64,000 nt of DNA from Actinomycetota bacterium (GTDB lineage Bacteria > Actinomycetota > Actinomycetes > S36-B12): positions 22,716 through 86,715 of the forward strand of contig JAUSNB010000063.1 in the NCBI GenBank assembly GCA_030645615.1, written 5' to 3'. Below, piece by piece: positions 7,738-43,999 of this stretch (position 1 is the stretch's first letter; every line of letters begins with the position of its first letter). Under the pieces are notes generated by a model. That model was not told the DNA's origin. It saw only the letters and a list, made by a program, of their open reading frames with translations, and did no database searches. A program made the translations under genes and the position numbers.

Positions 7738-7740
7738 CCG

Positions 7741-8688: not shown

Positions 8689-8694
8689 CGGGGC

Positions 8695-11596: not shown

Positions 11597-11609
11597 CGGC
11601 CTTCAGCCT

Positions 11610-14081: not shown

Positions 14082-14252
14082 CGTTGGGCTCCAAGTGCTG
14101 GGCAGGGCCGGGGCGGCCGGGAAGGGTGCCGACACCACGGTGCCACATGGACCCCGGGATCCCTATCTCCCACTCGCCACTTAAGTCACATTCGTCACAG
14201 GGCTCAGGGCGCGCCGGAACCCGCGGACGTGCGCGTGCGTCGATTGGCTCGG

Positions 14253-15743
14253 ATGGCCGTTTACCATGGCCTGACCCCGCCGCGCCTCGTGCCGGCGACC
14301 CCGAGAGGACTCATCGTGGCAGCAGGCAGCGCCGGACGGACAGCCGTCCGAACCGTGCTGGCGGTCGTCTCGGTGCTGGTCCTGCTCACGACGGCCGCGG
14401 GGGCCGCGGCCACCGTCTACATGAACCAGCTTCAGGGGAACATCACGTCGGTCGACGTCAGCGACCAGATCGGGCCGGTCGACACCAGCGCTCCGATCGC
14501 CGCCATCAACGAGGAGACCGGCACGTACGAGCCGCTGAACATCGTCCTCATGGGCAGCGACACCCGGGTCGGCAAGGGCAACGGCGGCTTCGGCGGCGTG
14601 GAGCAGTTCGGCACCGCCCAGCGCTCCGACACCGTGATCGTGCTGCACATCGCGGCGGACCGAAAGTCGGCCATCGGGGTGAGCATCCCCCGCGACACCA
14701 TGATCACCCTGCCCACCTGCAAGAAGGACGGCAAGAAGGTGGGCGGCTACGTCGCCCGCTTCAACCAGGCCATCGAGATCGGCGGACCCGGCTGCACGAT
14801 CAAGGCCATCAAGGAGATGTCCGGCCTGGACATCAAGAACTTCATGCTCGTCGACTTCGGGGGGTTCAAGCGCATCGTCGACGCCATCGGCGGCGTGGAG
14901 ATCTGCCTGACCGAGGCGGTCGACGACCCGCTGAGCGGCCTCGACCTCGAGGCCGGCAAGCACCTCGTCGAGGGAGAGGAGGCGCTCGCCTTCGTGCGCG
15001 TGCGCCATGGCATCGGCGACGGGTCGGACACCTCCCGCATCCGGCGCCAGCAGGCCTTCATCTCCTCGCTCATGCGCAAGGTGCTGTCCTCAGGCACCCT
15101 GCTCAACCCGGCCGCGCTGCTCAACGTCCTCGATGCGGCCACCAAGTCTTTGACGGCGGACCCGCAACTCGCCGATATCAACAACCTCAAGGACCTCGCC
15201 CTCAGCCTCAAGGACCTCAATCCCGCCGACGTCACCTTCACGACGATGCCGTGGATCCCCAGCGGCGACGGGGCGACGGTACTCGTCAACGCCAAGAAGG
15301 CCGCCCCGCTGTGGGAGGCCATGGCCAACGACACGGCCTGGCCCCCGAAGGACGGCACGACCAGCGACCAGCCCCTGCTGCGGACCGAGCCCGAGCAGAT
15401 CCGCGTGAACGTGCTCAACGGGACCGCGACGAAGGGCCTGGCCAAGAAGGCCGCCAAGCAATTGCGCAAGCAGGGCTACCTCGTGCAGGAGGTCGGCAAC
15501 GCCGAGACCTCCGATTACGCGCTCACGACGGTCCAGTTCGACCCGAACTGGGACGTGTCGGCCAAGACCCTGATCTATGCGACGAATGCGTCGGAGACGG
15601 AGAAGGTCAAGAAGCAGGGCGGGACGATGAACCTCATCGTCGGCGCGGACTGGGCCGGCGTGCGACCGGTCGAGATCGACGAACTGGCCCAGGACAACAC
15701 GGCGAACGTGAACACCGCCGACGAGAGTTTCTGCGCGTCCTGA
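14253..15743 (+). CDS. LytR-CpsA-Psr (LCP) family cell-wall glycopolymer ligase with LytR_C-like C-terminal domain
   Basis: Trimmed to ATG 14253. TM anchor RTVLAVVSVLVLLTTAAGAAA. The LCP core shows NIVLMGSDTR, RSDTVIVLHI, SIPRDT, GGFKRIVDAIGGVEIC, ALAFVRVRH, DTSRIRRQQAF. The C-terminal part shows IRVNVLNGTATKGLAKKAAKQLRKQGY. Confidence 0.9.
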   Translation: MAVYHGLTPPRLVPATPRGLIVAAGSAGRTAVRTVLAVVSVLVLLTTAAGAAATVYMNQLQGNITSVDVSDQIGPVDTSAPIAAINEETGTYEPLNIVLMGSDTRVGKGNGGFGGVEQFGTAQRSDTVIVLHIAADRKSAIGVSIPRDTMITLPTCKKDGKKVGGYVARFNQAIEIGGPGCTIKAIKEMSGLDIKNFMLVDFGGFKRIVDAIGGVEICLTEAVDDPLSGLDLEAGKHLVEGEEALAFVRVRHGIGDGSDTSRIRRQQAFISSLMRKVLSSGTLLNPAALLNVLDAATKSLTADPQLADINNLKDLALSLKDLNPADVTFTTMPWIPSGDGATVLVNAKKAAPLWEAMANDTAWPPKDGTTSDQPLLRTEPEQIRVNVLNGTATKGLAKKAAKQLRKQGYLVQEVGNAETSDYALTTVQFDPNWDVSAKTLIYATNASETEKVKKQGGTMNLIVGADWAGVRPVEIDELAQDNTANVNTADESFCAS

Positions 15744-15750
15744 CCCTCCC

Positions 15751-15818
15751 GAGCGGCCAGTCGTGGGGGTGCCTTGGACGCGCACGACCCCCACGCCTGG
15801 CCGCTCGCCGGGGTGGTG
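15751..15818. repeat. Palindromic intergenic element, family 1, copy A
   Basis: GAGCGGCCAGTCGTGGGGGT (15751-15770), a 16-nt loop, then ACCCCCACGCCTGGCCGCTC (15787-15806; one mismatch to a perfect inverted repeat), followed by GCCGGGGTGGTG. It starts 8 nt after the LCP stop codon. Confidence 0.85.
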
Positions 15819-15911
15819 TCGGGCCTTCCACAGGTGGCGGCCGCAAGGTCACGCGATCACAACCCGCTGACGGCCGTTGGCGATCGGCCTTGGTCGCGGC
15901 TCACTGGTCGG

Positions 15912-16835
15912 ATGCCAACCGACGACACGCCGATCAGCGAGGTCAACGGCGCCTTCCGCGTGACCGCCCTCGGAGCCGACGGGCTGAGCCGGGAGGCCGC
16001 CCGTGGTCCGCGCTTTGCCGCACCGTCCCGCGGCGTGCGGTACCGAGTCGACCACGCGGATCCGCGGCTGGCCCGGCACACCGCTGCCGTTCTGGGCAGC
16101 AGTGGACACGCCATCCTGGCGGGATTGTCGGCCGCCCAGGCCTGGGGCCTGCCCACCCCGCCGTGGATCGGCCTGGAGTGGGCAAACCGACCGGTGAGCG
16201 TCGCGGTCGGCGATGGCAACCGGCCGCGGCGCGGCGACGTCGAGGGACATCGCCTGCTGCTGCCGACCGGTCACGTCACCCACTTCCAGGGGGTGCGGCT
16301 GACGACGCCAGCACGGACGTGGCTCGACTGCGCGGCGTCGATCCCGCTCCCGCACGCGGTCGCCATGGGGGATGCTGTCCTCGCACAGGGCCTGGCCAGT
16401 CAGGAGGACCTCGCCGCCATCGTCAGCTGGGCCAAGCGACGTCGAGGCGTCGTCGCGGCGCGCCGGGCAGGCGCGCTGCTGGATGAGCGGTCGGCGTCCC
16501 CTGGGGAGTCGCTTGCGCGGGCGCACCTCGTCCTCGGTGGCGTGGCGGCTCCGGTCTGCAACCACGACGTCATCGTCAACGGCGAGTGGATCGCCCGAGT
16601 CGATCTCGCGTGGCTCGCGGCTCGCCTGGCCGTGGAGTACGACGGAGAAGTCCACCTGACGGAAGTACGCCGACGCCACGACGCGGCGCGCCGGAACCTG
16701 CTGCAGGCCGCGGGATGGCAGGTCATCACGCTCACGGCCGCGGACCTTGGCCGCCCCTGGGCCATGGTGTCGTTGGTCCGGGCAGCCATCGTCGAGCGGA
16801 CACCACCCCCGCCACCGCGCCACCGCCGTCGATGA
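15912..16835 (+). CDS. DUF559 / Vsr-like (restriction-endonuclease fold) domain protein
   Basis: Trimmed to ATG 15912. The C-terminal block VDLAWLAARLAVEYDGEVHLTEVRRRHDAARRNLLQAAGWQVITLTAADL matches the DUF559 pattern (D..EYDG..H....D..R...L...GW.V). The N-terminal half is unassigned (possibly wHTH). Pro-rich tail PPPPPRHRRR. Confidence 0.8.
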   Translation: MPTDDTPISEVNGAFRVTALGADGLSREAARGPRFAAPSRGVRYRVDHADPRLARHTAAVLGSSGHAILAGLSAAQAWGLPTPPWIGLEWANRPVSVAVGDGNRPRRGDVEGHRLLLPTGHVTHFQGVRLTTPARTWLDCAASIPLPHAVAMGDAVLAQGLASQEDLAAIVSWAKRRRGVVAARRAGALLDERSASPGESLARAHLVLGGVAAPVCNHDVIVNGEWIARVDLAWLAARLAVEYDGEVHLTEVRRRHDAARRNLLQAAGWQVITLTAADLGRPWAMVSLVRAAIVERTPPPPPRHRRR

Positions 16836-16915: not shown

Positions 16916-17785
16916 TCAGATGACCGGGGGCCGGCCCGCCTTCGTCATCGCCCAGACGGTGCGCCACTTCATCCGGCGCCTCCCGATCGGCCGTTCGGTG
17001 ATCCCCTCGCGCAGCCCGCCGAACCAGGCGCCGAGAGCTTCGCGGTCTCGCACGCGCAGCAAGGTCATGCCGACCCACGTGCCCACGTAGACCGGTTCGA
17101 GCACGAGCGGCAGGTTGCGCCTGGCCAGCCACACCCGGTTGCGTGCATTGAGCCGGTAGTAGACGTCGTGCCGGGCCGGGTCGATCACCGGGTGGTGCAC
17201 CACGAGATCAGCCGCGTACCACGGCACGTAGCCGGCGTCCCACACCCGCCACACCAGGTCGATTCCCTCGTGCGCGTAGAAGAACTCGTCGGCCCACCCG
17301 TCGATGGCCTCGAACACCGACCGGCGCATCATGACGGCCCCCTCCCACAGGGCGGTCGCCGGGCCCGGCTCGTGCGGGTCCCCCACCCGCAGCCGGGGCA
17401 CCCACCTGCGTGGCGCCGGGAGGCCCGTCGGGTCCTCCACGCGCGGCTGCACCAGCCCGAGGAGCGGATCGGCGGAGAACCGGGCCGCAAGGGTGGCGAG
17501 GAACCGCGGGTCCGGCAGCCACGCGTCGTCGTCAAGGAAGAACAGCAGCTCGCCCGAAACGTGCGGCACCCCGGCGTTGCGGCCCGCCGGGATTCCCACG
17601 TTCCGCGGCAGCGCGACCGCGCGCACGCCGTCGGGCAGGCCCGCCGGGATCCAGCCGTTGCCGACGACGACGACGTCGACGTCAACCCCCTCCTGCGCCA
17701 GAACCGAGCGGAGGCTCGCATCCAGTCCTTCGGGGCGGGTGCCCATGGTGAGGACGACGACCCCGATGCTCGGCAGGACGTCCAC
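16916..17785 (-). CDS. Glycosyltransferase family 2 (WbbL-like by size and context)
   Basis: 289 aa. VVVLTMGTRPEGL, RNVGIPAGRNAG, FFLDDDAW (DxD), GAVMMRRSVFEAIDGW, EGIDLVWR. Its family, size and proximity to the LCP gene parallel WbbL1 (Rv3265c), but donor specificity cannot be read from the sequence. Confidence 0.85.
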   Translation of the reverse strand: MDVLPSIGVVVLTMGTRPEGLDASLRSVLAQEGVDVDVVVVGNGWIPAGLPDGVRAVALPRNVGIPAGRNAGVPHVSGELLFFLDDDAWLPDPRFLATLAARFSADPLLGLVQPRVEDPTGLPAPRRWVPRLRVGDPHEPGPATALWEGAVMMRRSVFEAIDGWADEFFYAHEGIDLVWRVWDAGYVPWYAADLVVHHPVIDPARHDVYYRLNARNRVWLARRNLPLVLEPVYVGTWVGMTLLRVRDREALGAWFGGLREGITERPIGRRRMKWRTVWAMTKAGRPPVI

Positions 17786-17787
17786 CG

Positions 17788-18594
17788 CTAGCGGAGCCGG
17801 CTCGACGACAGGATGGCCATGAGGTGGCCCACGATCGTGACCACCCCGAGCACCGCAAGGCCGGCCACCAGTACGCGCGTCGCCGCGAGGCCGCCCAAGG
17901 GCACGTCGACCACCGCGGCGGCGAGGGCCAGCAGGGTCAGCTCGACGGAGTGGTACGCGCGGTGGAACGGGAAGAAGCGCGCGACGGACCGCAGCCGCCG
18001 CAGGCCGCCGGTGCGGGGCGCGGAGACCTCGGCCTTCTCCTCCAGGCGCGGCAGCCCGTTGTACGCGCGAGCGACGTGGACCATGTCATTGAGGGCCTTG
18101 TTGTACAGGACGATCACCGACAGCAGCGCGCCGATGAGTGGCCAGGGCGTGTCCATCCATCCCTCGCCTGGGAAGCCCGCGGCGCGCAGGCCGAGCGCAA
18201 TGGGGATGAGCCCCTCGGCCGTGTAGTGGCCGACGCGGTCGAGGAAGACTCCCTTCGGCGATGAGGTGCGGCGCCAGCGCGCGACCTCGCCGTCGGAGCA
18301 GTCCCAGAGCATCTGCAACTGACCGAGCAGGGCAGCCAGGAAGGCACCGGGAAGTCCGGGGATGAGCAGCGCGGAGGCAGCCGAGACGCCTGTCAGGATC
18401 ATCAGCCACGTGACGCCGTTGGCGGTGATCGAGGTGCGCAGCAGCGCCCTGGTGAGGTACGGCGACAGGCGGCGCAGGTAGACGTCGGCGACCCAGTGCT
18501 CGGAGTTTCGCCGGCCGCGCACCGCGGGCGGCTGGCCGACCTCACGGACCTGCGCGACGCTGGGGCGCGCCGGACGCGGCTCCTCGTCGCTCAT
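17788..18594 (-). CDS. CDP-alcohol phosphatidyltransferase family membrane protein (stand-alone paralogue, last motif Asp replaced by His)
   Basis: Track ORF trimmed to ATG 18594, which overlaps the upstream stop (ATGA). 268 aa, about 6 TM helices. The signature reads DCSDGEVARWRRTSSPKGVFLDRVGH, i.e. D-x2-D-G-x2-A-R-x8-G-x3-D-x3-H instead of ...D-x3-D. Confidence 0.85.
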   Translation of the reverse strand: MSDEEPRPARPSVAQVREVGQPPAVRGRRNSEHWVADVYLRRLSPYLTRALLRTSITANGVTWLMILTGVSAASALLIPGLPGAFLAALLGQLQMLWDCSDGEVARWRRTSSPKGVFLDRVGHYTAEGLIPIALGLRAAGFPGEGWMDTPWPLIGALLSVIVLYNKALNDMVHVARAYNGLPRLEEKAEVSAPRTGGLRRLRSVARFFPFHRAYHSVELTLLALAAAVVDVPLGGLAATRVLVAGLAVLGVVTIVGHLMAILSSSRLR

Positions 18595-20369
18595 GACCCG
18601 TCCGCCGGCCTGCTCGACCGGGAAGCTCCGCGCTGCACGGAGAGCCACTGTACGGAAGCGACGACGACGAACCACCCAGCCAGGAGCCAGGCCCCCCACG
18701 TCAGGCCGGTCGCGAGCGAACCGGCCCCGAGGACGGCCAGCCCGATGACCACGATGGTGCGCCCGTCCCAGCCAAGCCCGGGCCACGCCAGCCACCGCGG
18801 CGCGGCCGAGCCCTGGAGGGCCCGGTAGAGGTTGTCGTAGTGGTGGAAGGCCACGACGGCCATCCACCAGAACGCGGCCACCAGGGGCTGCGGCGACACC
18901 AGGAAGGCGGCGACAGCGACCGCTGACAGTTCGACCAGCCGTAACAGCGCAGGGACCGCCCAGGCTCCGCGGCCCTGCCACCAGGTGATGCGCCGGGCGG
19001 GCGGCACGAGCCGGGTGACCGCGCTGAGCAGGGGGCCGGCGTCGGCCTGCCGCGTGAGCAGCAGGACCCCGGACGCCGCGGTCGGACCGCGCCACGTGAG
19101 CGTGCGAAGGGTCCGCCCCACCGTGACATACGCGAGCGCGAGCAAACCGGCGCCTAGCAGGACGCCGAGCGCCCACGCCGGGCCGAGCGCCGCCGCGAAG
19201 ACACTGATGATCAGCCAGCGCTCGCCGATGGGCAGGTGGATCGCCCGCTTCGCCCAGCGGACGGCATCGCGACGGTTCATGCGCGAGGACAGCTCCATGG
19301 CTCCGCTCACCGACCAGCCGCCGGCCGAGCCATCCGCACCGTCATCGGCGATGGCGATGTCCCGCGGAGGCACGTACGCCTCGCGCAACCGCTGGACGCG
19401 GGAGAAGTCATAGTCGGACATGTGCCGGGTCGTCTGCAGGACGACCAGCACGACGGCCAGCCACCAGATGTCCAGCCCGCCGCGGGCGCCCCCGATGGCC
19501 AGGCCCGCATAGGCGAGGAATTCCTTGACCCGATCGGTCGATGCGTCGAGCCAGGCACCCAGCGCCGAGAACCGCCGGGTCGCACGGGCCACCTCGCCGT
19601 CGACGCAATCCACCACGAGGCTGGCCTGCAGGAGGATTGCCCCGACGACCAGCGCCCACCGCGACCCCCACGCAAAGGATGCTGCGGCCGCGATGCCGAT
19701 CGCGAAGGACAGCAGGGTGATCGCGTTCGGGGTCCAGCCCAGGCTCAGGGCCGCCCGGGTGAGCGGCTTGGACAGGCGACGGACGACGAAGGTCGAGTAG
19801 AAGCCGTCGTCGACGCGATTGGCCTGCAGCCGGGCGATTCTGGCCTCGTCGACGCTCTCCGCGGCGGCCCGGGCAGCAGCCGGTTCCGGCGCACCTCGCG
19901 ACCACGGCACGTCCACCATGCCGACCGCACGCACAGCGACGCCGCCTCGAGTAAGCGCGACGGCGACCAGCTCGACCGCGTCCCGGCCGTGCGTCGGCAC
20001 CACGCCGGCGGCCACGGCGGCAGCGAGGGCGGACACGGCAGCCCCCGCGGCCTCGGCATCGGCCGCAGAGATGAGCAGCGCGCCTACGGAGCGGTGGTCT
20101 GGGGCGGTCACGCCGTGGAACCCCGAGCCGGCGCTCGTGACGAGGTGATGGCGCACGCGCACGTCGCCATCACGGGAAGCCGGTCGCACGAGGAGGCTCG
20201 TGGGGGCGAAGGGGTCGTGGGTCAGCGGCGCAAGGGCGGCATCCGCAACGACGAGGTCGTCGGCAACGAGCACGACCGGAGCGGTCCAGGACGCGAGGCC
20301 GGCTGCCAGTGAATGCAGGGCCGTCGCCGGCTCCGCTCCACCGGGCAGGCTGACCAGGCGCGCGCTCAC
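18591..20369 (-). CDS. Multi-domain CDP-alcohol phosphatidyltransferase (N-terminal soluble domain, transferase core and extra C-terminal membrane domain)
   Basis: 592 aa. The GTG start overlaps the upstream stop. Residues about 1-190 are soluble and Ala-rich, with no G-x-G-x-R-L signature. The core has the perfect motif DCVDGEVARATRRFSALGAWLDASTD. The C-terminal 230 aa or so form an extra multi-TM domain (..WWMAVVAFHHYDNLYR..) that I believe corresponds to DUF5941. Confidence 0.85.
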   Translation of the reverse strand: MSARLVSLPGGAEPATALHSLAAGLASWTAPVVLVADDLVVADAALAPLTHDPFAPTSLLVRPASRDGDVRVRHHLVTSAGSGFHGVTAPDHRSVGALLISAADAEAAGAAVSALAAAVAAGVVPTHGRDAVELVAVALTRGGVAVRAVGMVDVPWSRGAPEPAAARAAAESVDEARIARLQANRVDDGFYSTFVVRRLSKPLTRAALSLGWTPNAITLLSFAIGIAAAASFAWGSRWALVVGAILLQASLVVDCVDGEVARATRRFSALGAWLDASTDRVKEFLAYAGLAIGGARGGLDIWWLAVVLVVLQTTRHMSDYDFSRVQRLREAYVPPRDIAIADDGADGSAGGWSVSGAMELSSRMNRRDAVRWAKRAIHLPIGERWLIISVFAAALGPAWALGVLLGAGLLALAYVTVGRTLRTLTWRGPTAASGVLLLTRQADAGPLLSAVTRLVPPARRITWWQGRGAWAVPALLRLVELSAVAVAAFLVSPQPLVAAFWWMAVVAFHHYDNLYRALQGSAAPRWLAWPGLGWDGRTIVVIGLAVLGAGSLATGLTWGAWLLAGWFVVVASVQWLSVQRGASRSSRPADGS

Positions 20370-21526
20370 GGACGAAGTGACTTCAGCCGCCAGCGAGTGT
20401 TCACGTCGGCCTTGGCACGCGAGATGAGCTGCGTGCTGAGCTCGCGGGCGCTGAGCTCAGGGTTCTCGCGGGTCATCTCGATGACGGTCATGACGGCCTG
20501 CACCGCGGCATCGGTCGGCAGCTCAGTAGCGGAGCTCGCGGGGGGCGGCGGCGGCGAGTCGACCCGCACCCCGAGGGCGTCCAGGTCGCCGAGGACGCGC
20601 ACCCCGAGGTCGCGGATCCGGTCCACCGACTCCGCTCCTCGCTCGGCCGCTGCGTCCAGCGCCCAGTCGGGGGTGTGCAGCCGCGGCTCCTCAGGCGCAG
20701 GCTCGCGTCCCTCCACCATGCCCAGGGCGACGCCACGGCGCACGAAGCGCACGTATTCGTCCCATGTCATCTCCTTCTTGACCCGGCGGTTGAGCCGGAT
20801 CAAGAACTCCGCCTCAGCCGCCGTCATCGAGCGGTTCGACGTGAGGTTCATGCGCGAGACGAGCACGTCCTCGGGCAGGTCCAGCAGTTGGGCGAAGGTG
20901 CGGTACATCTGCTGGTGCTCGAGGCCCTCGAGGACGAGCACGGTGACGGCATGCGGGCCGAGTGCCTCCGCCCACCGCTGGATCACGTTCGCATGGTCAT
21001 TGCGCCGCCAGAACGACGGCGTCATGTGGCCCTTGTCCTCGCTGAACACATTGCGCAGCCACTTGTCGTAGTTCGCGACGAGGCCGTACTTGAGGTACTG
21101 CTGCCAGGAGGACGGCAGGAGCCTGCCGAGGTTGCGGAGCGTGACCACGACGTGCACGCGCGAGCCGCCGAGGTCCGCGACGACCTTCGCTGCCGTCGGC
21201 CCGTCGCACTCGCAGAAGAACTCGCTGCTGACCGCCACCCGGCCGGGGTGCTTGCGCACCTGCTTGGCCATGGTGTCGAAGAACTTCATGTCGTACGACT
21301 CGCCGCCCCGCTCCTTCCAGCCCCACGTTCGCTGGGTGACGGCCAGCGCCTGGCGGTGCTGTGCGCTGCGCTTGCCCGGGTACAGGATCCCGTGCTCGCG
21401 GAGCTGCGGACGCGCGTCGGCGAGGGCGGCCTGGATGGCCGTCGTTCCGGTCTTGTGCACCCCGACGTGCAGGAGCACCCCGTCCGCCGGGAGCGCGGAC
21501 ACCTCGGGCAGCGACGACATGGCCAT
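20366..21526 (-). CDS. Sulfotransferase-fold (P-loop) protein
   Basis: Trimmed to ATG 21526. 386 aa, soluble. It has a 5'-PSB-like loop LLHVGVHKTGTTAIQ and a 3'-PB-like VVTLRNLGRLLPSSWQQY, as in PAPS-dependent sulfotransferases. Its stop overlaps the next gene's start (GTGA). Confidence 0.7.
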   Translation of the reverse strand: MAMSSLPEVSALPADGVLLHVGVHKTGTTAIQAALADARPQLREHGILYPGKRSAQHRQALAVTQRTWGWKERGGESYDMKFFDTMAKQVRKHPGRVAVSSEFFCECDGPTAAKVVADLGGSRVHVVVTLRNLGRLLPSSWQQYLKYGLVANYDKWLRNVFSEDKGHMTPSFWRRNDHANVIQRWAEALGPHAVTVLVLEGLEHQQMYRTFAQLLDLPEDVLVSRMNLTSNRSMTAAEAEFLIRLNRRVKKEMTWDEYVRFVRRGVALGMVEGREPAPEEPRLHTPDWALDAAAERGAESVDRIRDLGVRVLGDLDALGVRVDSPPPPPASSATELPTDAAVQAVMTVIEMTRENPELSARELSTQLISRAKADVNTRWRLKSLRP

Positions 21527-21530: not shown

Positions 21531-22355
21531 CTAGAGGGGGCCGCCGGACTCCTCGGTCGAGGTTTCGGGCTCCTCGGGTGGCGTGTCCTGGCCGCGCCGA
21601 CGGGATTCCCGGAAGAGGGCGATCGCCTCGGGCACCGTCCCCTGCGCCACGAGCGCACCGGCCTCGAGGACGATCGCGCGGTCGCAGAAGCGCCGGAACT
21701 GCCGGGGGCTGTCGGATGCCAGCAGGAACGTGACGCCGTCCTTGCGCATCTGGTCGACCCGCGTCCAGCATTGCTGCCGGAAGTCCCGCTCGCCGACGAC
21801 CAGCACCTGCTCGACGGCGTAGGCCCGGGCCTCGGTGGCCATGCTGATCGACCACGCCAGCTTCTGCCGCACCATCGGGATCGCCGTCCCCAGGTACTTG
21901 TCGAGGCTGCCCTCCAGGCCGGAGAACGCGGCGATGCCGGCGACCCGGTCGCCAGCCTCGTCCGGAGTCATGCCGAGCAGGCCGCCCACGAAGTAGATGT
22001 TCTGCCTGATCGTGAAGCCACGCTGCAACGCCCGCGCGACGTCGATCATCGGCACGACGGCCACCCGCCTGCGCACCGCTCCCTCGTCCGGAATCAACGT
22101 GCCCGCGGCGAGCCGCAGGAGGGTCTCCCGGCCGGAGCCCTTGCCGCCGACGATGGCCACGGACTCGCCCTCGGCGACGCTGAACGTCGCCCCGCGCAGC
22201 CGCCACACCTCGTCACGGCGGGTCTCCCCCGCGATCCGGCGCAGCCGCTGGCGTCGCCCCCCGCCCCGGCGCCGGACCTGGCGCGGCATCCGCACGCCGA
22301 CGGCGTCGAACTCCAGCACGGGGCCTAGACCGGGCGTGAGCGGTGCGCGCGCCAT
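21531..22355 (-). CDS. TagH/Wzt-like ABC nucleotide-binding domain protein with degenerate catalytic motifs
   Basis: Trimmed to ATG 22355 (1-nt overlap with the permease stop). It aligns end to end with B. subtilis TagH as I recall it. However, Walker A is GGKGSGRET (nt 22122-22148), the signature position is TAIPMVRQKL, Walker B is AYAVEQ and the H-loop is LLASDS. It has an Arg-rich N-extension of about 55 aa. Confidence 0.8.
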   Translation of the reverse strand: MARAPLTPGLGPVLEFDAVGVRMPRQVRRRGGGRRQRLRRIAGETRRDEVWRLRGATFSVAEGESVAIVGGKGSGRETLLRLAAGTLIPDEGAVRRRVAVVPMIDVARALQRGFTIRQNIYFVGGLLGMTPDEAGDRVAGIAAFSGLEGSLDKYLGTAIPMVRQKLAWSISMATEARAYAVEQVLVVGERDFRQQCWTRVDQMRKDGVTFLLASDSPRQFRRFCDRAIVLEAGALVAQGTVPEAIALFRESRRRGQDTPPEEPETSTEESGGPL

Positions 22356-23128
22356 CAGGCCTCCTTCAGGATGCGCGGCTCGAGGCGGCGGAACACGATG
22401 ATGCCGACGACGAACGTGGCGGTGCAGATGCCGAGCGAGATCGCGTAGGCACCCACCGTCTCGATCTCCTCTGGCCAGAACCCGATGCGGTACAGGCCGA
22501 GGATCCCGACGAGCGGATTGAACGCGGCGAACGGCTGCACCTGTGCAGGGATGTTCGAGATCGAGTACAAGACGGGCGACAGGTAGAACAGGGCACGCAT
22601 CACGATGCGCACGATGCGGGCAAGATCGGGGACGACGACGGACCATGACGCGATGAGCAGCCCAAGCCCGTACATGAAGAAGAACTGCACGAGGATCGCC
22701 ACGGGGAAGAACACGATCAGTGGCCCGGGCAGGGTCTTGGTGAGGGCCATCGCGAGGAGCACGACCGGCAGCGACAGCAGGAACTCGATCATCGTCGACG
22801 CGATCACCCTCAGGATCCACAGTTCCGTCGGGAGCAGGCTGATCCGCAACTGGCCGCCCTTGCGGCGGAATACGCGCGTCGTCGCCGAGATCCCCCGAGT
22901 GAACCACCACCACGGCAGGATCGCGATGGACAGGAACAGCAGGTACGGCTGCAGGCCGAGATCGCGGGCACCGAGCAGGACCGAGAACACGAACCACAGC
23001 ACCACGGACATGCCGAGCGGCTCGAGGATCGTCCAGAGGTACCCGAGGCGGAACTTCTTGTACTGCGTCTGCAAGTCACGAAGGACCAGCATGCGGAGCA
23101 CCTGACGGTGCTCCCAGAGAGATCGCAC
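22355..23128 (-). CDS. ABC-2 type (TagG/Wzm-like) polysaccharide/teichoic acid exporter permease
   Basis: 257 aa with 6 predicted TM helices. Characteristic N-terminal LVLRDLQTQYKKFRLGYLWTILEPL and FNPL near the last helices. Confidence 0.9.
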   Translation of the reverse strand: MRSLWEHRQVLRMLVLRDLQTQYKKFRLGYLWTILEPLGMSVVLWFVFSVLLGARDLGLQPYLLFLSIAILPWWWFTRGISATTRVFRRKGGQLRISLLPTELWILRVIASTMIEFLLSLPVVLLAMALTKTLPGPLIVFFPVAILVQFFFMYGLGLLIASWSVVVPDLARIVRIVMRALFYLSPVLYSISNIPAQVQPFAAFNPLVGILGLYRIGFWPEEIETVGAYAISLGICTATFVVGIIVFRRLEPRILKEA

Positions 23129-23203
23129 GCTGGTTACGATAGGTCACGCCCGTGCCAGGCCAGCCAGGAGCCACGCGGGATCCAAGACTCACGGGCGGGG
23201 ACA

Positions 23204-24487
23204 GTGACGACAGCCGGCAAGAGGCGCGATGGTGCCGTCACCACCTTCACCAAGAAGGCGGCGCGCGCCACGGCCAACCGGCTCCGCGCCTACGGCAGCG
23301 CCCGCGAGCCCGAGGGCTTCGACCTCGACGACGTACCCACCGCCGACATTGCCCTGTATTTCGCGGACACGCCCCACAAGCTGTACCAGCTGAGCCAGTG
23401 GCTGCCCGTCTTCGAGGCACGCACGGACATGCGCACCATCGTGGTCGTGCGCTACGTGGAGACGTACAACGAGCTCCTCGGCCGCACGTCGCTCAAGGTC
23501 CTGCTCGTCCCCCGCTACGAGGTGCTCATGGCGCTGTACGACCGGGCGGACTTCCATGCCGTCGTCTACGTCAATAACGGGTGGACCAACTTCCAGTCGT
23601 TGTCGTTCCAGCAGGCCGTGCACGTGCACGTGAACCACGGCGAGAGCGACAAGATCTGCATGGTCAGCAACCAGGCGAAGGCCTACGACAAGGTGTTCGT
23701 CGCCGGCGAGGCGGCCGTGCGGCGCCATGCAGCCGCACTGGCGTGGTTCGACCCCGCCCACCTCGTGCGGGTGGGCCGCCCGCAGCTCGACCTCCAGGTG
23801 CCGCCCGTCGTGGGGCCGTTCGACGGCATGACGATCACGTACGCGCCGACCTGGGAAGGCGAGGACGAGGCCAACAACTACACGTCGGTTGACCGCTACG
23901 GTCCGCGGATCGTCGCTGCCGCCCTGGCCCAGCCGAGCGCCCGCGTGATCTACAAGCCGCACCCGCGCGTCGCGTCGACGAAGGACGCCGGGGTGGCCCG
24001 CGGCCACGCGGAGATCGTTGACCTGGTGCGGTCGGCCGCGGCTGCCGACCCGGCCCGTGGCCACGCCGTCCTGCTCAACGCGGACGTGCTGGGCGTCATC
24101 CGCTCGACCGACCTCATGATCGCCGACGTGTCGAGCGTCAGCCTGGACCACCTGTACCTGAGGCCCGACGCCCCCCTCGCCCTGACCGACCGGCGCACCA
24201 ACCGGGCACGGCTGCTCGAGGATGCGCCCGTCGCTGCCGGGGCGCATGTCATCGACGAAACGAGCATCGGAACGCTCGACCAGGCACTGGCGTCCATGGT
24301 CTCGCACGACTCGATGCGGGAAACCCGCAACGGACTGCGCGACCTGTACTTCGACTCCCTCGCCCCGGGACAGAGCACGGTGCGCTTCTGGCAGGAACTC
24401 GAACGGGCGATGCATGAGCATGATCAGGCCCTGCGGGAACTCAGCCGGCTAAGGGTTGTCGACGACGTGGCGGAGGACAGGCGATGA
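23204..24487 (+). CDS. CDP-glycerol glycerophosphotransferase family protein (TagB/TagF-like)
   Basis: Family motifs ITYAPTWEGEDE, VIYKPHPRV, LMIADVSSVSLDHLYLRPDAPL. The start is uncertain: track start 23108 would overlap the divergent permease gene, so I chose GTG 23204. Confidence 0.82.
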   Translation: MTTAGKRRDGAVTTFTKKAARATANRLRAYGSAREPEGFDLDDVPTADIALYFADTPHKLYQLSQWLPVFEARTDMRTIVVVRYVETYNELLGRTSLKVLLVPRYEVLMALYDRADFHAVVYVNNGWTNFQSLSFQQAVHVHVNHGESDKICMVSNQAKAYDKVFVAGEAAVRRHAAALAWFDPAHLVRVGRPQLDLQVPPVVGPFDGMTITYAPTWEGEDEANNYTSVDRYGPRIVAAALAQPSARVIYKPHPRVASTKDAGVARGHAEIVDLVRSAAAADPARGHAVLLNADVLGVIRSTDLMIADVSSVSLDHLYLRPDAPLALTDRRTNRARLLEDAPVAAGAHVIDETSIGTLDQALASMVSHDSMRETRNGLRDLYFDSLAPGQSTVRFWQELERAMHEHDQALRELSRLRVVDDVAEDRR

Positions 24488-25173
24488 CCGTGCAGGCAGT
24501 GATCCTTGCAGCGGGCATGGGGACCCGTCTGGGCAAGCCCTGGCCGAAGCCACTGACCCCGCTGTCCGACGGGCGCACCATCATGCGGCAGCAGATGGAC
24601 AACCTGGCAGCCGCCTTCGCGGACCTGCGTGTCCTGACCGTCGTGGGCTTCAAGCTGGAGCTGATCCTCGAGGCCTTTCCCGACGTGACGTACGTCTACA
24701 ACGAGAACTACGACCGCACCAACACCAACCGCAGCCTGCTGAAGGCACTACGGCTGTCCGCCGACGGCGGCGTGCTGTGGATGAACGGGGACGTCGTGTT
24801 CGACCCCCAGGTCCTCGAGCGGACGAAGGACCTCATGGCCGCGGAGCAGTCGTTCATCTGCGTCAACACGGCCATGGTCGGCGAGGAGGAGGTCAAGTAC
24901 ACCGTCGACGGGGAAGGCTTCGTCGACCGGCTGTCCAAGACCGTCGCGGACGCCCTTGGCGAGTCCGTCGGCATCAACTACGTGAGCGCGACCGACAAGG
25001 CCCGGCTCATCGAGCGTCTCGCGGAGTGCGACGACTCCGATTACTTCGAGCGTGGCCTGGAGCTCATGATCGAGAAGGACGCCGCCCGCGTGGTGCCGTT
25101 CGACATCCGCGACCTCTTCGCCGTCGAGGTCGACTTCGAAGAGGACCTTTCCCGGGCGAACAAGCACCTCTAG
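24484..25173 (+). CDS. Small nucleotidyltransferase (LicC-like alcohol-phosphate or sugar-phosphate cytidylyltransferase)
   Basis: 229 aa. AVILAAGMGTRLGKPWPKPL signature. Single-domain enzyme. The ATG overlaps the upstream stop (ATGA). Confidence 0.82.
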   Translation: MTVQAVILAAGMGTRLGKPWPKPLTPLSDGRTIMRQQMDNLAAAFADLRVLTVVGFKLELILEAFPDVTYVYNENYDRTNTNRSLLKALRLSADGGVLWMNGDVVFDPQVLERTKDLMAAEQSFICVNTAMVGEEEVKYTVDGEGFVDRLSKTVADALGESVGINYVSATDKARLIERLAECDDSDYFERGLELMIEKDAARVVPFDIRDLFAVEVDFEEDLSRANKHL

Positions 25174-25257: not shown

Positions 25258-26409
25258 TCAGCGCAGGACCCGGGCGATCAGCGCCTCCCACTCGTCCATG
25301 ACGAGGTCCGCCCGATAGGGCCGGACGGCCTCGCGGGCCCGGCGGCCCAGCGCGGCACGGTCATCTGCCGAGCCCATCAGGGCGGCCATCTGCTCCCCCA
25401 GGGCCGCCGGGTCGGCACGAGGCACGAGGCGCGCGGCCGCACCGTCGCGGCTGAGCAGCCGCACGCCGGCCGAGCAGTCCGTGGCGATGCAGGGCAGGCC
25501 GCTGGCCATCGCCTCGGCGAGCGCAAGTGGCAGTCCCTCGGTGAGCGAGGGCAGCACGAACAGGTCCGCCTCGCGCAGCAACCCCTCGGCATCGGCGACC
25601 GGCGGGCTGAACTGCACCCGGTCGGCGCCCGCCGGAAGTCCCGCAGCCTGCTTGCGCAGGGACTTCTCGTCCGGCCCGGAGCCCGCCAGACGCAGCGTCC
25701 AGCCGGGGAACTCGCCGGCCACCAGGCCCCATGCCGACAGCAGGAACCCGGCTCCCTTCTCCACCGCGAGCCGCCCGAGGAACATGACCGTGCCCGTGTC
25801 TCCCGGGCGCACGGCCACCGGCTCCGCGGGCCAGAAGGCCAGCGGGTTCGCCAGCCATGTCGTGTTGTTCAGCCCTGCCCGACGGAAGGCGTCCGCGTCA
25901 GCGGGGGTCAGCAGGGTGACCAGGTCGACGTCGGCGTACAGGCCGATGGCACGGGCGAGGTCACGACCTGCGGCCGCGGCCTCGAAGGACGAGTGGTACT
26001 GCCCCACCACGGCCCAGTCGTCGTGCGGAACCTCGGCGAGGTGCTCCATCGCCCACAACTGCGTGGTCACGATGACCCCTGGCGGTCCGTCGGCCAGCAG
26101 GGCAGCCAGGCCGGCGACCGCCTCCGCCCGCAGCAGGGACCGCGTGGCGAGGCGCTGCTTCGTGGCCCGGCTGTGGCGGGCCCGGAAGCCCAGGTCCTTC
26201 GGCGGCGCCGGCCACTCGTGGCTCATCAGCGTGACCCGCCGGACCCGGGGGTCGAGCGCGTAGTCATGCGGGGGCAGGTATGGCGCGATGCCCAGGAGGT
26301 CGACGGCGTAGCCACGACGGGCCAGGCCGTCGGCCACGACATGTGCCACGCGCTGCGCTCCGCCGACCTCGTCGATGGTGTTCGCGGCGATGACGACCCG
26401 CGCGCTCAT
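25258..26409 (-). CDS. Glycosyltransferase family 4 (GT-B fold)
   Basis: Trimmed to ATG 26409 (ATGA overlap). N-terminal VVIAANTIDEVGGAQRV; C-terminal FLGRLAVEKG and LPSLTEGLPLALAEAMASGLPCIATD (E-x7-E region). Confidence 0.88.
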   Translation of the reverse strand: MSARVVIAANTIDEVGGAQRVAHVVADGLARRGYAVDLLGIAPYLPPHDYALDPRVRRVTLMSHEWPAPPKDLGFRARHSRATKQRLATRSLLRAEAVAGLAALLADGPPGVIVTTQLWAMEHLAEVPHDDWAVVGQYHSSFEAAAAGRDLARAIGLYADVDLVTLLTPADADAFRRAGLNNTTWLANPLAFWPAEPVAVRPGDTGTVMFLGRLAVEKGAGFLLSAWGLVAGEFPGWTLRLAGSGPDEKSLRKQAAGLPAGADRVQFSPPVADAEGLLREADLFVLPSLTEGLPLALAEAMASGLPCIATDCSAGVRLLSRDGAAARLVPRADPAALGEQMAALMGSADDRAALGRRAREAVRPYRADLVMDEWEALIARVLR

Positions 26410-29192
26410 GCGAACCCCTCGTCCAGAACGACGGCCGCGGCCCGGGCCGCCGATTGGCCGTCCGCTGGCGCGCACCTCTGCTGCGCGAACGACCGGCGGC
26501 CCGGGCCGTGGAGCGCGTCCCACGCGATCGGGTCGTCGAGCCACGAGCTCACCTCGTCGACGAGGGACTCCATCGACATCACGACCGGCGCTACCGCGAC
26601 CTGCAGCTCGTAGACGCCCGTGGTGCGCCGCACGAAGGTGTCGTGGTCGGGCTCGAAGCACACGACCGGCACGTCGAGCGCCGCCGCCAGGCCGATCACT
26701 GACGAGTAGTCCGAGATGACGAGGTCCGAAGCCGCGACCCAGTCGGCCTGGTCGCCTGCCCCGCGCACGTCGCGGACTGCGTAGGCCAGGCGCGCCGGCA
26801 CGTCCAGCCCGGCCGGACCGCGGACGAGCAGGTAGCAGTGAGCGCCCAACGCGCCCGCCCAGGCGTCCAGGTCGAAGTCGGAAACCGGCACGGCGCTCGC
26901 GCGGGCCACCGGGTCGTACAGGACGATGCGCCGGTCCGCCGGCAGGTCCAGTCCTGCCCGCAGCGCCGCGATTGCCACTGTCCCGGACCTGAGGACCTGC
27001 GCTGCCCGGTCGGCCCGGGGCTGGCCCACCACGGCGGCCGGCCCGCGGACCGCCAGCGCGGGCCGGATGATGTCGGCCGTCCAGTCCGAGGCGACGAGGA
27101 CGCTCGTCGTACGCCCCCCGCGGCGCCGCACCTCGCGCACGGCGGGAGGCGACACCAGCACGCCCGGGTCGTCCAGGCCGATGCGGTGCACGGGCACGTC
27201 GCAGGCGGCCATGACCGCTCGGGTGCTGCGGCGTCGCCGGACGGTCAGCGGCGACGTGCCGTCATCGAGCCAGAGCCTCGCCCGGACCATGAGCCACTGG
27301 TGCCGCAGCCCGTAACGCGCCACCGCGCGGGCGTACGAGGGGACGTCGGTGGGCACCGCGCCGCGGTACGCCCACGCCTGGGCGAGGCCGGGGCGGCTGG
27401 CGTGCAGCGCCTCCCCGATCGCCCGGATGTCGTCTCGCCTCTCCGCGCCGTCGAGCACGACGAGGTTGCGCGCCGGCAGCAGGAGCCCAAGCCGCTGGAC
27501 GAGCCCGGGCAGGATGTCCGCCCGGATGGTCGCGGCAAGGGCGAGCAGGCTCCTGATCACGGGGGCGCTGCGCCGGCTGGCGCGCCGACGGGCCGAGCGA
27601 CGAACGGCTGGTGAGGCGGCGGCCCGCCAGCCGATGGCGCCGAAGTCGTACGGGCCGACGGCGAGGAGATCGGGGCCGTCCGTCACCCTCGTTCCGGGGT
27701 GGTCGATCTCGACGCGCGGCGCCTGCTCGGTGCAGGCCCGGACCGGCAGGGCGCTGACCACCCCGCCGCGAGCCATCGCCAGCATGACGGTGCCGCGCTC
27801 ATGCGCGGCGAGGGGCGCGGGGTCGACGGCTGCGGGCGGGCCTGTCGCGCGCCACGCGCGCACGGCTCCCGACGTCGCTTCCCACTGCGCCGGCACGGCC
27901 AGCACGACGCGGCCGGGGCCCGCCACGAAGCGCAGTTCGAGGGAGTCGACCGCGTCGAGGGTTCCGTCATAGTCGACCGTCGTACCGCGTGCCGACAGCA
28001 CTCCGCCGACGTAGTCCATCGACGCCACTTCGTGCAGGAAGCGCCGCTGGCTGAACGGCACGCGCAGCGGCTGGACGTCCGCAAGGTCGAGCCAGTCGCG
28101 CGCGAGACGGCCGCCTGCCGGCGGGCCGGACGCGAGGTGGCTGCACCCCCAGTACTCCCGGTCCCCTTCGCGCACGATGGACTCGCCGACCACGGACGCC
28201 CACTTCACCATGGCCATGGCAGCGCGGACGCCGGGCAGGTCGTCCACGAGCAGGTGGTAGATGGCCACGCGCAGCCCGGGCCGCACTTTCCAGACCGGGC
28301 CAAGGTCCATGGCAGACACATACGGGATCAGCCGATCCATGAGCGCACGTGCGGTGTCGTCGTCGGCTTCCAGGATGGACGACAGGTAGAGGTAGAGGTC
28401 GTGCCGCAGGAACTTCAGGTCCTTGATCTGCCGCAGTGCACCCAGCCCCTGGGCCTGCAGGAACGCGTCGATGCGCCGGTTGATCTCGATCCGGCTCTCG
28501 ACGTTGCGCACCTCGTGGCGGCTCTGGGTGATCGACGGCTCGTCCGACAGCCGGTCGACGTACCAGAGATAGACCGTCTCCGGGATGGCCGCCACGCGCC
28601 GCGAGGAGGCAAGCGCCTCCAGGGTGAACAGCTGGTCCTCGAACAGCAGCCCTTCCGGGAAGCGCAGCCCGGCCCGCTCCAGCATCGAGCGCCGGAAGAT
28701 CTTGTTGACGGTGATGGTGTCGTTCAGCAGCTCGGGGAACGCTTCGAGGCCGTCCTCGACCCGCTCGGACTCGTGCACCTCGGGCCGCCACCGTCGGGTG
28801 CGCCCCGTCGCCACGTCCACGCGCTCTGCCGTGCCGCAGACGACGTCGGCATCGAGTCGCTCCGCCGCCTCGAGCAGGTTCTTGCACGCGTGCCGGTCGT
28901 ACTCGTCGTCGGAGTCGCAGAACATCACCCACGGGGACTGGGCCACGTCCATCCCGCGGTTGCGCGGGGCACTGCAGCCGCCCGAGTTCTGCTCCAGGCG
29001 CTCGTAGCGGATGCGTGGATCCTTCGCGGCGAGGGCTGCCACCGCGTCGGCGGTGCCGTCGGTCGAGGCATCGTCCACCACGACGATCTCAAGGTTGCGC
29101 AACGTCTGCCTCTGCACGGATCGGATGGCTCGAGGCAACCGATCGGCGTCGTTGAACGAGATGACGACGACCGTGACGTCGGGAACGGCCAT
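26406..29192 (-). CDS. Bifunctional GT2 glycosyltransferase / TagF-like glycerophosphotransferase-domain protein
   Basis: 928 aa. The N-terminal GT2 part shows VTVVVISFNDADRLPRAIRSVQRQT, VVDDASTDGT, NSGGCSAPRNRG, FCDSDDEY. The C-terminal TagF-like part shows DLVISDYSSVIGLAAALDVPVVCFEPD. Confidence 0.88.
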   Translation of the reverse strand: MAVPDVTVVVISFNDADRLPRAIRSVQRQTLRNLEIVVVDDASTDGTADAVAALAAKDPRIRYERLEQNSGGCSAPRNRGMDVAQSPWVMFCDSDDEYDRHACKNLLEAAERLDADVVCGTAERVDVATGRTRRWRPEVHESERVEDGLEAFPELLNDTITVNKIFRRSMLERAGLRFPEGLLFEDQLFTLEALASSRRVAAIPETVYLWYVDRLSDEPSITQSRHEVRNVESRIEINRRIDAFLQAQGLGALRQIKDLKFLRHDLYLYLSSILEADDDTARALMDRLIPYVSAMDLGPVWKVRPGLRVAIYHLLVDDLPGVRAAMAMVKWASVVGESIVREGDREYWGCSHLASGPPAGGRLARDWLDLADVQPLRVPFSQRRFLHEVASMDYVGGVLSARGTTVDYDGTLDAVDSLELRFVAGPGRVVLAVPAQWEATSGAVRAWRATGPPAAVDPAPLAAHERGTVMLAMARGGVVSALPVRACTEQAPRVEIDHPGTRVTDGPDLLAVGPYDFGAIGWRAAASPAVRRSARRRASRRSAPVIRSLLALAATIRADILPGLVQRLGLLLPARNLVVLDGAERRDDIRAIGEALHASRPGLAQAWAYRGAVPTDVPSYARAVARYGLRHQWLMVRARLWLDDGTSPLTVRRRRSTRAVMAACDVPVHRIGLDDPGVLVSPPAVREVRRRGGRTTSVLVASDWTADIIRPALAVRGPAAVVGQPRADRAAQVLRSGTVAIAALRAGLDLPADRRIVLYDPVARASAVPVSDFDLDAWAGALGAHCYLLVRGPAGLDVPARLAYAVRDVRGAGDQADWVAASDLVISDYSSVIGLAAALDVPVVCFEPDHDTFVRRTTGVYELQVAVAPVVMSMESLVDEVSSWLDDPIAWDALHGPGRRSFAQQRCAPADGQSAARAAAVVLDEGFA

Positions 29193-30124
29193 CAGCCGGC
29201 CTCGCCACGCAGCGACCTGGCCCGATCGATGAGGACCGCCGCCCGCGCGTCGAAGCTGTGCTCCCGGGCGACGCGTTGCGCGAGGGCGAGCCGCGATGCC
29301 CGGTCGGGGAAGGCGCCCGGCCCAGCCTCCAGGATCTCGGCCAGCTGCGCAGCCGAGGAGAAGGAGCGGACGTCGCCGCCGAACGCGTCGGCTAGGCCCG
29401 TGGCGGCGTCCGTCAGCACGCGGGCACCAGCGGCGGTCGCGTCGAAGAGCCGGTTGGACAGGAAGCCCTCGGCCGCCATGTCCGGCCAGTGGTCGTTCAG
29501 GACGATCCCGGCAGCCGCGTAGGCGGCTGGCAGTTCGGCGTTCGCGAGGAACTGCCCCGCGATGCGCTCAGGTGGCAGGTAGGCCTCCCACCCCGCGCCG
29601 AACACCGCTACGTCAAAGCCGGCGGCGAGCGCGTCGCGCACCGCGGGGCGGAACTCGCCGCGGGTGGAACCGACGAACAGCACCGCCGGGCCGGTGTCGG
29701 GAACGGCCGCATCGGGCCGGAATCGACGAGGGTTGGTCGCCTGCAGCAGCGGCTGAACCGGCACGTCGAAGTGGCGGGTCCAATGGGCGCTCGCGGCGAA
29801 GCAGGCGTCGAAGCCCGCCGGCTCGTCCTCCTCGACCAGTTCGGGGTGGCTGATCACCCAGAGCAGCCAGGTCGCCCCGCCGCGTCGCGGGCGCACCCGG
29901 CGAAGCCCTCGCAGGACGACGACGACATCGTCCTGCTCGCGTGCCGGAGCCTCCGCCCCCGGGCGGGCCACGACCGACGCCTCCTGCCCGGCGCGGGCAA
30001 GGGCGTCGACGAGGTCGGCAGCGAAGTGCGTGTCCCCCCACTGGTCGCCGGCCTCGCCCTTGGGCGCCGACGTGACGACCGACCAGCGCAGCGGCCGGCC
30101 CCGCCTGCGCCAGCGCGCCAGCAC
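29192..30124 (-). CDS. CgeB-like / GT1-type glycosyltransferase domain protein
   Basis: Track ORF trimmed to GTG 30124, 3 nt after the upstream stop. The C-terminal half AVLFVGSTRGEFRPAVRDAL..VFGAGW..YAAAGIVLNDHWPDMAAEGFLSNRLFDATAAGARVL resembles Glyco_trans_1_2-type domains. Its stop overlaps the next start by 1 nt. Confidence 0.7.
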   Translation of the reverse strand: MLARWRRRGRPLRWSVVTSAPKGEAGDQWGDTHFAADLVDALARAGQEASVVARPGAEAPAREQDDVVVVLRGLRRVRPRRGGATWLLWVISHPELVEEDEPAGFDACFAASAHWTRHFDVPVQPLLQATNPRRFRPDAAVPDTGPAVLFVGSTRGEFRPAVRDALAAGFDVAVFGAGWEAYLPPERIAGQFLANAELPAAYAAAGIVLNDHWPDMAAEGFLSNRLFDATAAGARVLTDAATGLADAFGGDVRSFSSAAQLAEILEAGPGAFPDRASRLALAQRVAREHSFDARAAVLIDRARSLRGEAG

Positions 30125-43962: not shown

Positions 43963-43999
43963 GTTGGCGCGCGCGTAGCAGGCCTCGTACCGTGGAGGG

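Follow-up and report, generated by a model that had tools for sequence, protein, structure and literature searches.

The 64,000-nucleotide stretch of actinobacterial DNA analysed here (the window, to which all unlabelled positions and strands refer) carries at 21531..22355 (-) a gene for a 274-aa protein with the fold of a Wzt/TagH-type nucleotide-binding domain (NBD) of ATP-binding cassette (ABC) exporters, in which every catalytic motif is substituted. From the sequence comparisons given below, this pseudo-NBD is probably a non-catalytic subunit docked on the adjacent permease and specialised in the electrostatic capture or gating of an anionic lipid-linked polymer, and it is most likely nucleotide-independent. 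The permease (22355..23128, (-)) is of the ABC-2 type, Wzm/TagG/KpsM-like (PF01061, 7e-14), and also matches the KpsM and galactan Wzm models, under their cut-offs. The two genes are translationally coupled: as an earlier, preliminary description of this DNA had stated, the pseudo-NBD ATG overlaps the permease stop codon by 1 nt (TGATG), and an AAGGAGG ribosome-binding site lies upstream. The permease adjoined the pseudo-NBD in all 49 orthologous loci, so that the arrangement of an NBD beside an ABC-2 permease in a glycopolymer cluster was found throughout.

The best solved relative was the NBD of Wzt from Aquifex aeolicus (6m96/6amx; E 1e-31), to which residues 43-245 aligned collinearly in HMMER. 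In this alignment, the Walker A sequence GPNGAGKST is replaced by GGKGSGRET (Lys to Arg and Ser to Glu; 22122..22148, (-)), the Walker B sequence IIDE by AVEQ (remnant AYAVEQ, Asp to Glu and catalytic Glu to Gln; 21807..21824, (-)), the D-loop ALAVGD by VLVVGE, and the H-loop SHD by SDS, with Asp215 in the place of His (21711..21713, (-)). The signature YSSGM is replaced by AIPMV; its remnant, TAIPMV, aligned to TYSSGM (21870..21887, (-)), lies in columns that are weakly conserved in the family. The preliminary description had reported the Walker A, signature, Walker B, and H-loop substitutions, and each was confirmed by this alignment. A fifth motif loss, absent from that list, is the A-loop aromatic: Met23 (22287..22289, (-)) aligned to the Phe of canonical actinobacterial relatives, at the adenine-stacking Phe/Tyr site. 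The corresponding residue of A. aeolicus Wzt, Tyr11, is an A-loop residue with a described role (PMC6379404).

Profile searches gave the same picture. The match to ABC_tran (PF00005), an alignment to which had been proposed as a check of the motif losses, was confined to aa 53-99 (29.4 bits against a cut-off of 25, 47 of the 137 profile positions), and the protein has neither the Walker A consensus GxxGxGK(S/T), nor a signature LSGGQ/YSSGM, nor the Walker B hhhhDE with the H-loop His. The best NCBIfam match, NF050108 for Wzt/RfbE (galactan), reached 79.3 bits against a cut-off of 400, followed by the TagH models NF010065 (73.7 against 538) and NF010066 (67.5 against 320). Its fold, gate helix, and gene neighbourhood place the pseudo-NBD in the Wzt/TagH NBD lineage, but it has none of the catalytic motifs of ABC ATPases and reaches none of the NCBIfam equivalog cut-offs; we therefore filed it as a degenerate offshoot and neither as Wzt nor as TagH. 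Automated annotation calls the proteins of this family 'ABC transporter ATP-binding protein', a label that is probably wrong with respect to function. The AlphaFold2 (AF2) model of the monomer, built from a 75-sequence alignment, was confident (predicted local distance difference test, pLDDT, 88; predicted TM-score, pTM, 0.83) and showed the RecA-like core and helical subdomain of an ABC NBD. Foldseek returned >1000 matches to ABC NBDs, and the top ones were all Wzt, TagH, TarH, or mycobacterial Wzt (TM 0.71-0.78).

A word-indexed search returned 342 homologues, and the column counts given for the family refer to the best 120 of these 342, which are 52-100% identical to the query. In the Walker A Lys column, Arg occurs in 106 and Gln in 14 sequences, and Lys never; the Ser column reads E64/Q42/D13, the Walker B Asp column D54/E45/S16, the catalytic Glu column Q93/R18/E8, the H-loop column D109/E8/N2, and the A-loop column M71/L41/I5. 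The D-loop glycine is invariant. The canonical combination of K-S/T, D-E, and H was found in none of the 128 family members. A HMMER search of 1.84 billion cluster representatives gave 114 proteins at E <= 1e-30, about a dozen of them belonging to the family, while the others were canonical Wzt/TagH NBDs with identities of <= 35%. Distant members (P0122-P0125, P0135, P0139, and P0162; 37-47% identity) are more degenerate still, and the deep ones P0135, P0139, and P0162 have no P-loop glycines; a word-indexed search with the deep-branch P0139, which lies on a 4-kb contig, returned canonical Wzt proteins only. Just under the family in the exhaustive search ranked proteins of ~770-920 aa (P0127-P0182), many of them with two tandem Wzt-type NBDs and a C-terminal domain in one chain. 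The inspected ones were canonical in both halves, and they rank high because two domain scores sum.

That the gene is a decaying pseudogene, or that its substitutions are sequencing or assembly artefacts, is refuted by these data. Of the 48 relatives that a genome scan found, 46 clearly belong to the family (49-99% identity); these 46 come from metagenome-assembled genomes (MAGs) of uncultured Actinomycetota, mostly labelled Nanopelagicales, and none from a cultured organism. Carriers of the family include the complete chromosomes OZ245718.1 (3.46 Mb) and OZ257128.1 (3.55 Mb) and the 2.08-Mb contig CAWJHN010000004.1. The open reading frame (ORF) is unbroken in the window, as it is in about 46 loci of independent assemblies, and a further assembly encodes an identical protein. 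Its GC content by codon position (0.73/0.53/0.94) is that of the adjoining genes, as had been judged by eye in the preliminary description. For 13 close pairs with dS of 0.02-0.4, dN/dS (Nei-Gojobori) was 0.072, as compared with 0.033 for the permease, 0.053 for the cytidylyltransferase, 0.066 for the gene of unknown family downstream, 0.112 for the TagF-like gene, and 0.123 for the CDP-alcohol phosphatidyltransferase/DUF5941 fusion in the same dS range; the values from all pairs (0.16-0.31) are inflated, with dS of ~1.0-1.2, close to saturation. In favour of an artefact, some orthologous loci are frameshifted in several genes: the NBD, TagF, CDP1, and unknown genes are split into several frames in loci L015, L019, and L048. 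Because these breaks strike many genes together, they look like assembly indel errors and not like pseudogenes, and the MFD MAGs concerned are suspected to be long-read (nanopore) assemblies. The pseudo-NBD is thus not decaying, given family-wide substitutions, purifying selection, and a confident Wzt/TagH fold, and on this point the preliminary description was right.

A search with the closest canonical NBD (P0189) led to a locus, L053, with the order NTP_transf_3, ABC-2 permease, NBD, CDP-OH+DUF5941, CDP-OH, GT2 (glycosyltransferase family 2), and with a LytR-CpsA-Psr (LCP) ligase and an acyl-CoA dehydrogenase nearby. The NBD of this locus is wholly canonical (GANGQGKST, FSSGM, VDE, SHN). 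Between the window and L053, identity was 68% for the acyl-CoA dehydrogenase, 63% for the CDP-alcohol transferase CDP2 and 48% for CDP1, 62% for the cytidylyltransferase, 55-58% for GT2, 51% for the TagF-like protein, 40% for the permease, and 36% for the NBD. Between L053 and a second locus with a canonical NBD, L052, it was 73% for the acyl-CoA dehydrogenase, 57% for GT2, 38% for the permease, and 64% for the NBD. At a similar genomic distance, these figures show a burst of divergence in the NBD only; since then, it has been under purifying selection. Accelerated evolution of the permease was considered and rejected, as the permeases of the canonical pair L053/L052 are also just 38% identical.

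In a neighbour-joining tree, all 17 of the sampled degenerate sequences formed one clade, sister to the canonical actinobacterial clade. Because the degenerate sequences are monophyletic and L053 lies outside their clade, the tree points to a single ancient loss followed by constraint. Orthologues with normal motifs had been named beforehand as what would betray a strain-specific decay; such a positional orthologue does exist in L053, but its place outside the degenerate clade speaks against decay of that kind. Most likely, judging from gene order and sequence, the pseudo-NBD evolved in place out of the canonical Wzt/TagH-type ATPase that belonged to a conserved actinobacterial wall-glycopolymer (teichoic-acid-like) cluster.

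The Arg-rich stretch RQVRRRGGGRRQRLRR, which the preliminary description had taken for part of a 55-aa N-terminal extension, is present, but it is the beta1-helix-beta2 gate-helix insert typical of Wzt/TagH NBDs, and canonical relatives have an equally long basic segment at the same place. The gate-helix segment itself, RQVRRRGGGRRQRLRRI (aa 25-41; 22233..22283, (-)), was placed between beta1 and beta2 by the AF2 model and the alignment; the model has a helix at 34-41, with strands at 14-28 and 45-60 on either side. R28, R29, R40, A42, and G43 are invariant in the family. In Wzt, the gate helix is a lengthened link between beta-strands 1 and 2 (PMC6379404). It sits at the cytosolic membrane interface, where an electropositive pocket has been proposed as the site of the undecaprenyl pyrophosphate (UndPP)-linked substrate, and it touches the lipid-linked galactan in the Mycobacterium tuberculosis transporter (PMC6379404, PMC13649706).

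Comparison per column of 120 family members with 119 canonical relatives showed where constraint has moved. It was lost at F23 (A-loop), N72, S77, and T78 (Walker A), H157, S160, and G161 (signature), D182, and D189, and gained in or beside the gate helix at P24, G31, G33, R34, R37, A42, G43, E44, and E49, with further gains at Q118, Y121, and R163. Fixed switches from canonical to family residues include H215D, K81R, V96R, G112R, F168W, and Y197W. The mean net charge is +6.4 in the family and -1.9 in the canonical relatives. Also strongly conserved in the family alignment is RGFTIRQNIYFVGGLLGM (aa 112-129; 21969..22022, (-)), at the start of the helical subdomain, where R117, Q118, and N119 are invariant and G128/M129 nearly so, matching the TGxENIY..LLG of canonical Wzt/TagH; from the architecture of ABC transporters, we infer that this segment forms the docking groove for the permease coupling helix. 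The protein ends in a basic-then-acidic tail, ESRRRGQDTPPEEPETSTEESGGPL (21534..21608, (-)), predicted to be disordered (pLDDT < 50 for aa 258-274). Asp/Glu-rich C-terminal tails occur in most family members, the distant ones included, and might act as mimics of the polyanionic substrate or shield the Arg-rich gate. Some of the acidic tails are very long (P0122), and in canonical relatives the tail is weakly present.

From these observations, a model can be proposed in which the pseudo-NBD would still be the partner that the adjacent ABC-2 permease requires on its cytoplasmic side, docked through the conserved RQNIY..GGLLGM groove. Its strongly electropositive gate helix, at the membrane interface, would capture the pyrophosphate-lipid-linked anionic polymer, which would then be fed into the Wzm-like channel. 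Because the Walker A and the signature faces of the single NBD are both degenerate, a homodimer would contain two dead sites, and ATP hydrolysis at the pseudo-NBD would not be the power for translocation. Nor can nucleotide binding be what is conserved as a function across the family, since P0135, P0139, and P0162 have lost the P-loop glycines. As alternative drives, the most plausible would be the membrane potential or proton-motive force (PMF), with a polyanionic substrate moving along a continuous channel, or a ratchet by extracellular LCP ligation. Whether nucleotide is bound or not, the Wzm channel is continuous, and the membrane potential has been suggested to favour outward movement of the anionic head group (PMC6379404). 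Transport that is truly ATP-independent and driven in one of these ways is conceivable, by analogy, although we hold it to be considerably less probable than a capturing or gating role as such. More tentative again is the full picture of a natural ATP-independent type V exporter whose former ATPase has become a permanently bound, Arg-rich capture gate, possibly auto-regulated by its acidic tail.

Several points weigh against a nucleotide-independent capture subunit. The core family retains a G-x-x-G-x-G-R loop with a positive charge, to which a nucleotide or another phosphate ligand could bind. A canonical TagH/Wzt is possibly encoded elsewhere in these genomes, as the search for other NBDs covered the window and 10 kb of the 49 loci. 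The reliable dN/dS values come from the 13 close pairs alone, with most pairs near dS saturation, and the carriers of the family are without exception uncultured MAGs. The AF2 model is of a monomer, which bears on the proposed docking, and the membrane potential, PMF, or LCP ratchet as a source of energy is speculation.

Other explanations were weighed against docked capture or gating by the pseudo-NBD. It is unlikely, in our estimate, that a canonical NBD from elsewhere powers the permease in trans, with the pseudo-NBD left as a regulator, an assembly chaperone, or a competitor for the docking site. Canonical relatives of the same subfamily are present in related Actinomycetes; however, the NBDs of ABC-2 exporters normally adjoin the permease gene, and here the pseudo-NBD fills that slot, coupled, at every locus, and is orthologous by position to the canonical NBD of L053. 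No second NBD was found within 10 kb in any of the 49 orthologous loci, and the window encodes just one further ABC ATPase, the tandem-NBD protein of a Bmp/PnrA nucleoside importer (61364..62980, (-)), which agrees with the earlier statement that the pseudo-NBD is the only ABC ATPase of its gene group. Heterodimer formation with a canonical NBD would presumably not help, since both faces of the pseudo-NBD are degenerate and a consensus ATP site could not be restored. Less probable than energisation in trans is that the permease and the pseudo-NBD together have ceased to transport and serve the cytoplasmic synthesis machinery as a scaffold or sensor in the membrane, the polymer being exported by another route. 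Loss of the motor would fit loss of transport, as non-transporting ABC proteins are comparable, and the pair sits among synthesis genes. Nevertheless, constraint on the permease is, by the dN/dS given above, the strongest in the cluster. Another flippase was found neither in the window nor in the orthologous clusters, and in particular no Wzx, MurJ, or GtrA-type flippase was seen in the 64 kb. Something must still be exported, because the cluster has a conserved neighbour, the LCP ligase, whose place of action is outside the membrane.

We consider it quite improbable that the protein is an active ATPase with a non-canonical site, in which Arg stands in for the Walker A Lys, Glu, Gln, or Asp serves as the Mg2+ ligand, and other residues are catalytic. 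The P-loop glycines and the positive charge at the Lys position, which the core family keeps, and the invariant D-loop glycine would fit such a site. Against it, six losses occur together (A-loop aromatic, Walker A Lys, Ser, signature, catalytic Glu, and H-loop His), and each change of this kind in an ABC motif is strongly inactivating alone. In addition, the replacement residues vary (R/Q; E/Q/D; D/E/S; Q/R/E), the P-loop is gone in the deep members, and the ATP-site columns are relaxed instead of newly constrained.

The genes around the pair lie close together, overlapping or separated by a few bases, and a scan for promoters and terminators from 16.5 to 25.5 kb found nothing over the shuffled expectation. 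Downstream of the pseudo-NBD, 4 nt past its stop, begins the gene for a conserved 386-aa protein of no known family (20366..21526, (-)). It gave no Pfam, NCBIfam-level, or PDB match, whether the query was the sequence by itself or a profile of 9 sequences, and the single-sequence AF2 model had a pLDDT of 35. Of the 50 NBD-bearing sequences searched (the 49 loci and the window), 45 have the gene downstream, and so does the deep-branch locus L054, at 45% identity; the canonical-NBD locus L053 and the streamlined loci L033 and L024 lack it. Its invariant residues include H18-x-G-V-H-K-T-G-T-T and R129-N-L-G-x-x-L-P-S-S-W-Q-Q-Y-L-K, and the motifs HKTGTT and RNxxRxxxSSWQQ may resemble the 3'-phosphoadenosine-5'-phosphosulfate (PAPS)-binding motifs of sulfotransferases. 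The protein was considered as a co-gained energiser or obligate partner of the pseudo-NBD and rejected in this role, as L033 and L024 keep the pseudo-NBD without it.

Further along the operon are the fusion of a CDP-alcohol phosphatidyltransferase with DUF5941 (18591..20369, (-)), syntenic in the orthologous loci; a small second CDP-alcohol phosphatidyltransferase (17788..18594, (-)), the ATG of which overlaps the upstream stop (ATGA); and, at its end, a GT2 glycosyltransferase (16916..17785, (-)). A TagF-like glycerophosphotransferase (23108..24487, (+); PF04464) is divergent from the permease and is followed by a MobA-like nucleotidyl (cytidylyl) transferase (24484..25173, (+); PF12804, 1.4e-15), while a GT2 fused to a TagF-like polymerase lies at 26406..29567 (-). 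The LCP ligase is at 13560..15743 (+) (PF03816, 7e-45); proteins of the LCP family attach wall polymers to peptidoglycan. This neighbourhood is conserved: on one side it comprises glycosyltransferases, the GT2-TagF fusion, and GT4, with NTP_transf_3 and the TagF-like gene on the opposite strand, and on the other the permease, the pseudo-NBD, the unknown protein of ~385 aa, CDP-OH_P_transf+DUF5941, CDP-OH_P_transf, and GT2, with LCP nearby. In L033 (8424..13752) and also in L024, both from lake-derived Nanopelagicales MAGs, we observed a minimal cluster of cytidylyltransferase, permease, pseudo-NBD, small CDP-alcohol transferase, GT2, and LCP, without the unknown gene, the DUF5941 fusion, and an adjacent TagF-like gene. 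Between the LCP ligase and the operon-end GT2 of the window, there is a DUF559/MTES_1575 endonuclease-like ORF (15744..16835, (+)), and in an orthologous locus of 68% identity (L001, 15566..16453) the corresponding position is also occupied by such an ORF.

The preliminary description had treated the cluster as an island. It is instead a conserved core chromosomal wall-polymer locus and not a foreign insert, because the rest of the window consists of core chromosome genes: purE/purK, birA, maf, biotin carboxylase, PNP, PGM, deoC, adenosine deaminase, and the Bmp-type nucleoside importer. From 8695 to 39717, the order is a manB-like NTP_transferase, LCP, the wall-polymer cluster, acyl-CoA dehydrogenase, UDP-glucose dehydrogenase, purE, purK, and birA, which resembles the order in the mycobacterial Rv3264c-Rv3279c region. 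By this analogy, the locus would be an ancient actinobacterial wall-linkage locus in which teichoic-like genes are embedded, as the gene order suggests. Elsewhere in the window, four ORFs (9827..11602, (-); 7741..8694, (-); 7159..7740, (-); and 43979..45289, (+)), one of them of 591 aa, give a good coding signal, with a GC content at third codon positions (GC3) of 0.88-0.91, and have no Pfam family at E <= 0.001. The gene at 5635..7134 (+) encodes a fusion of F420-0:gamma-glutamyl ligase and nitroreductase (FbiB-type), fitting an F420-using actinobacterium.

To our knowledge, all the characterised glycopolymer ABC-2 exporters (Wzm-Wzt, TagGH/TarGH, and KpsMT) use two active ATP sites. TarGH and the mycobacterial Wzm-Wzt are drug targets because of these active sites. 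Full-text literature searches brought up no TagH/Wzt-type NBD described as fully degenerate and no mention of DUF5941. A lineage that keeps the permease while its only cluster-encoded NBD is a conserved pseudo-ATPase raises the question whether a Wzm-type channel needs ATP for some substrates, and also what an NBD contributes beyond energy, such as docking, the gate helix, and substrate capture. It would offer a natural separation-of-function variant for transport studies and a clear bacterial membrane-transport example for pseudoenzyme research.

Among known systems, the closest are the WzmWzt exporters of the A. aeolicus O-antigen (6m96, 7k2t, 8dku) and of M. tuberculosis and Mycobacterium abscessus galactan. 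They gave the best match both in sequence (E 1e-31) and in structure (TM 0.74-0.78), and share with the locus described here the gate helix between beta1 and beta2, the adjacent ABC-2 permease, and the glycopolymer cluster. Wzt, however, is an active ATPase with consensus Walker A and B, YSSGM, and His, all of which are replaced family-wide in the pseudo-NBD; the latter also has no C-terminal carbohydrate-binding domain, and its gate helix is far richer in Arg, the net charge being +6 as opposed to about -2. The TagGH/TarGH exporters (Bacillus subtilis TagH, 7dd0; Staphylococcus aureus TarGH, 9cfl; 6jbh) have NBDs of the same subfamily, and their clusters likewise contain TagF-like polymerases, a cytidylyltransferase, and an LCP ligase, but TagH and TarH hydrolyse ATP, whereas the sequence of the pseudo-NBD predicts that it does not do so by the canonical mechanism. 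Tolerated and conserved non-consensus residues at the catalytic Glu, H-loop, and signature are also found in the degenerate-site heterodimers (TM287/288, BmrCD, TmrAB, CFTR, and Pdr5); those keep one consensus site from two NBDs (PMC7756269), while here one NBD gene per locus was found in the 49 loci, with both of its faces degenerate. Finally, the membrane domains of LmrA (also as LmrA-MD) and MsbA can move substrate by ion-motive force without ATP hydrolysis (PMC2704374, PMC4979069). Those exporters, however, are of type IV and either experimentally truncated or ATP-competent, unlike the natural and conserved loss of the ATPase described here in what would be a type V polymer exporter.

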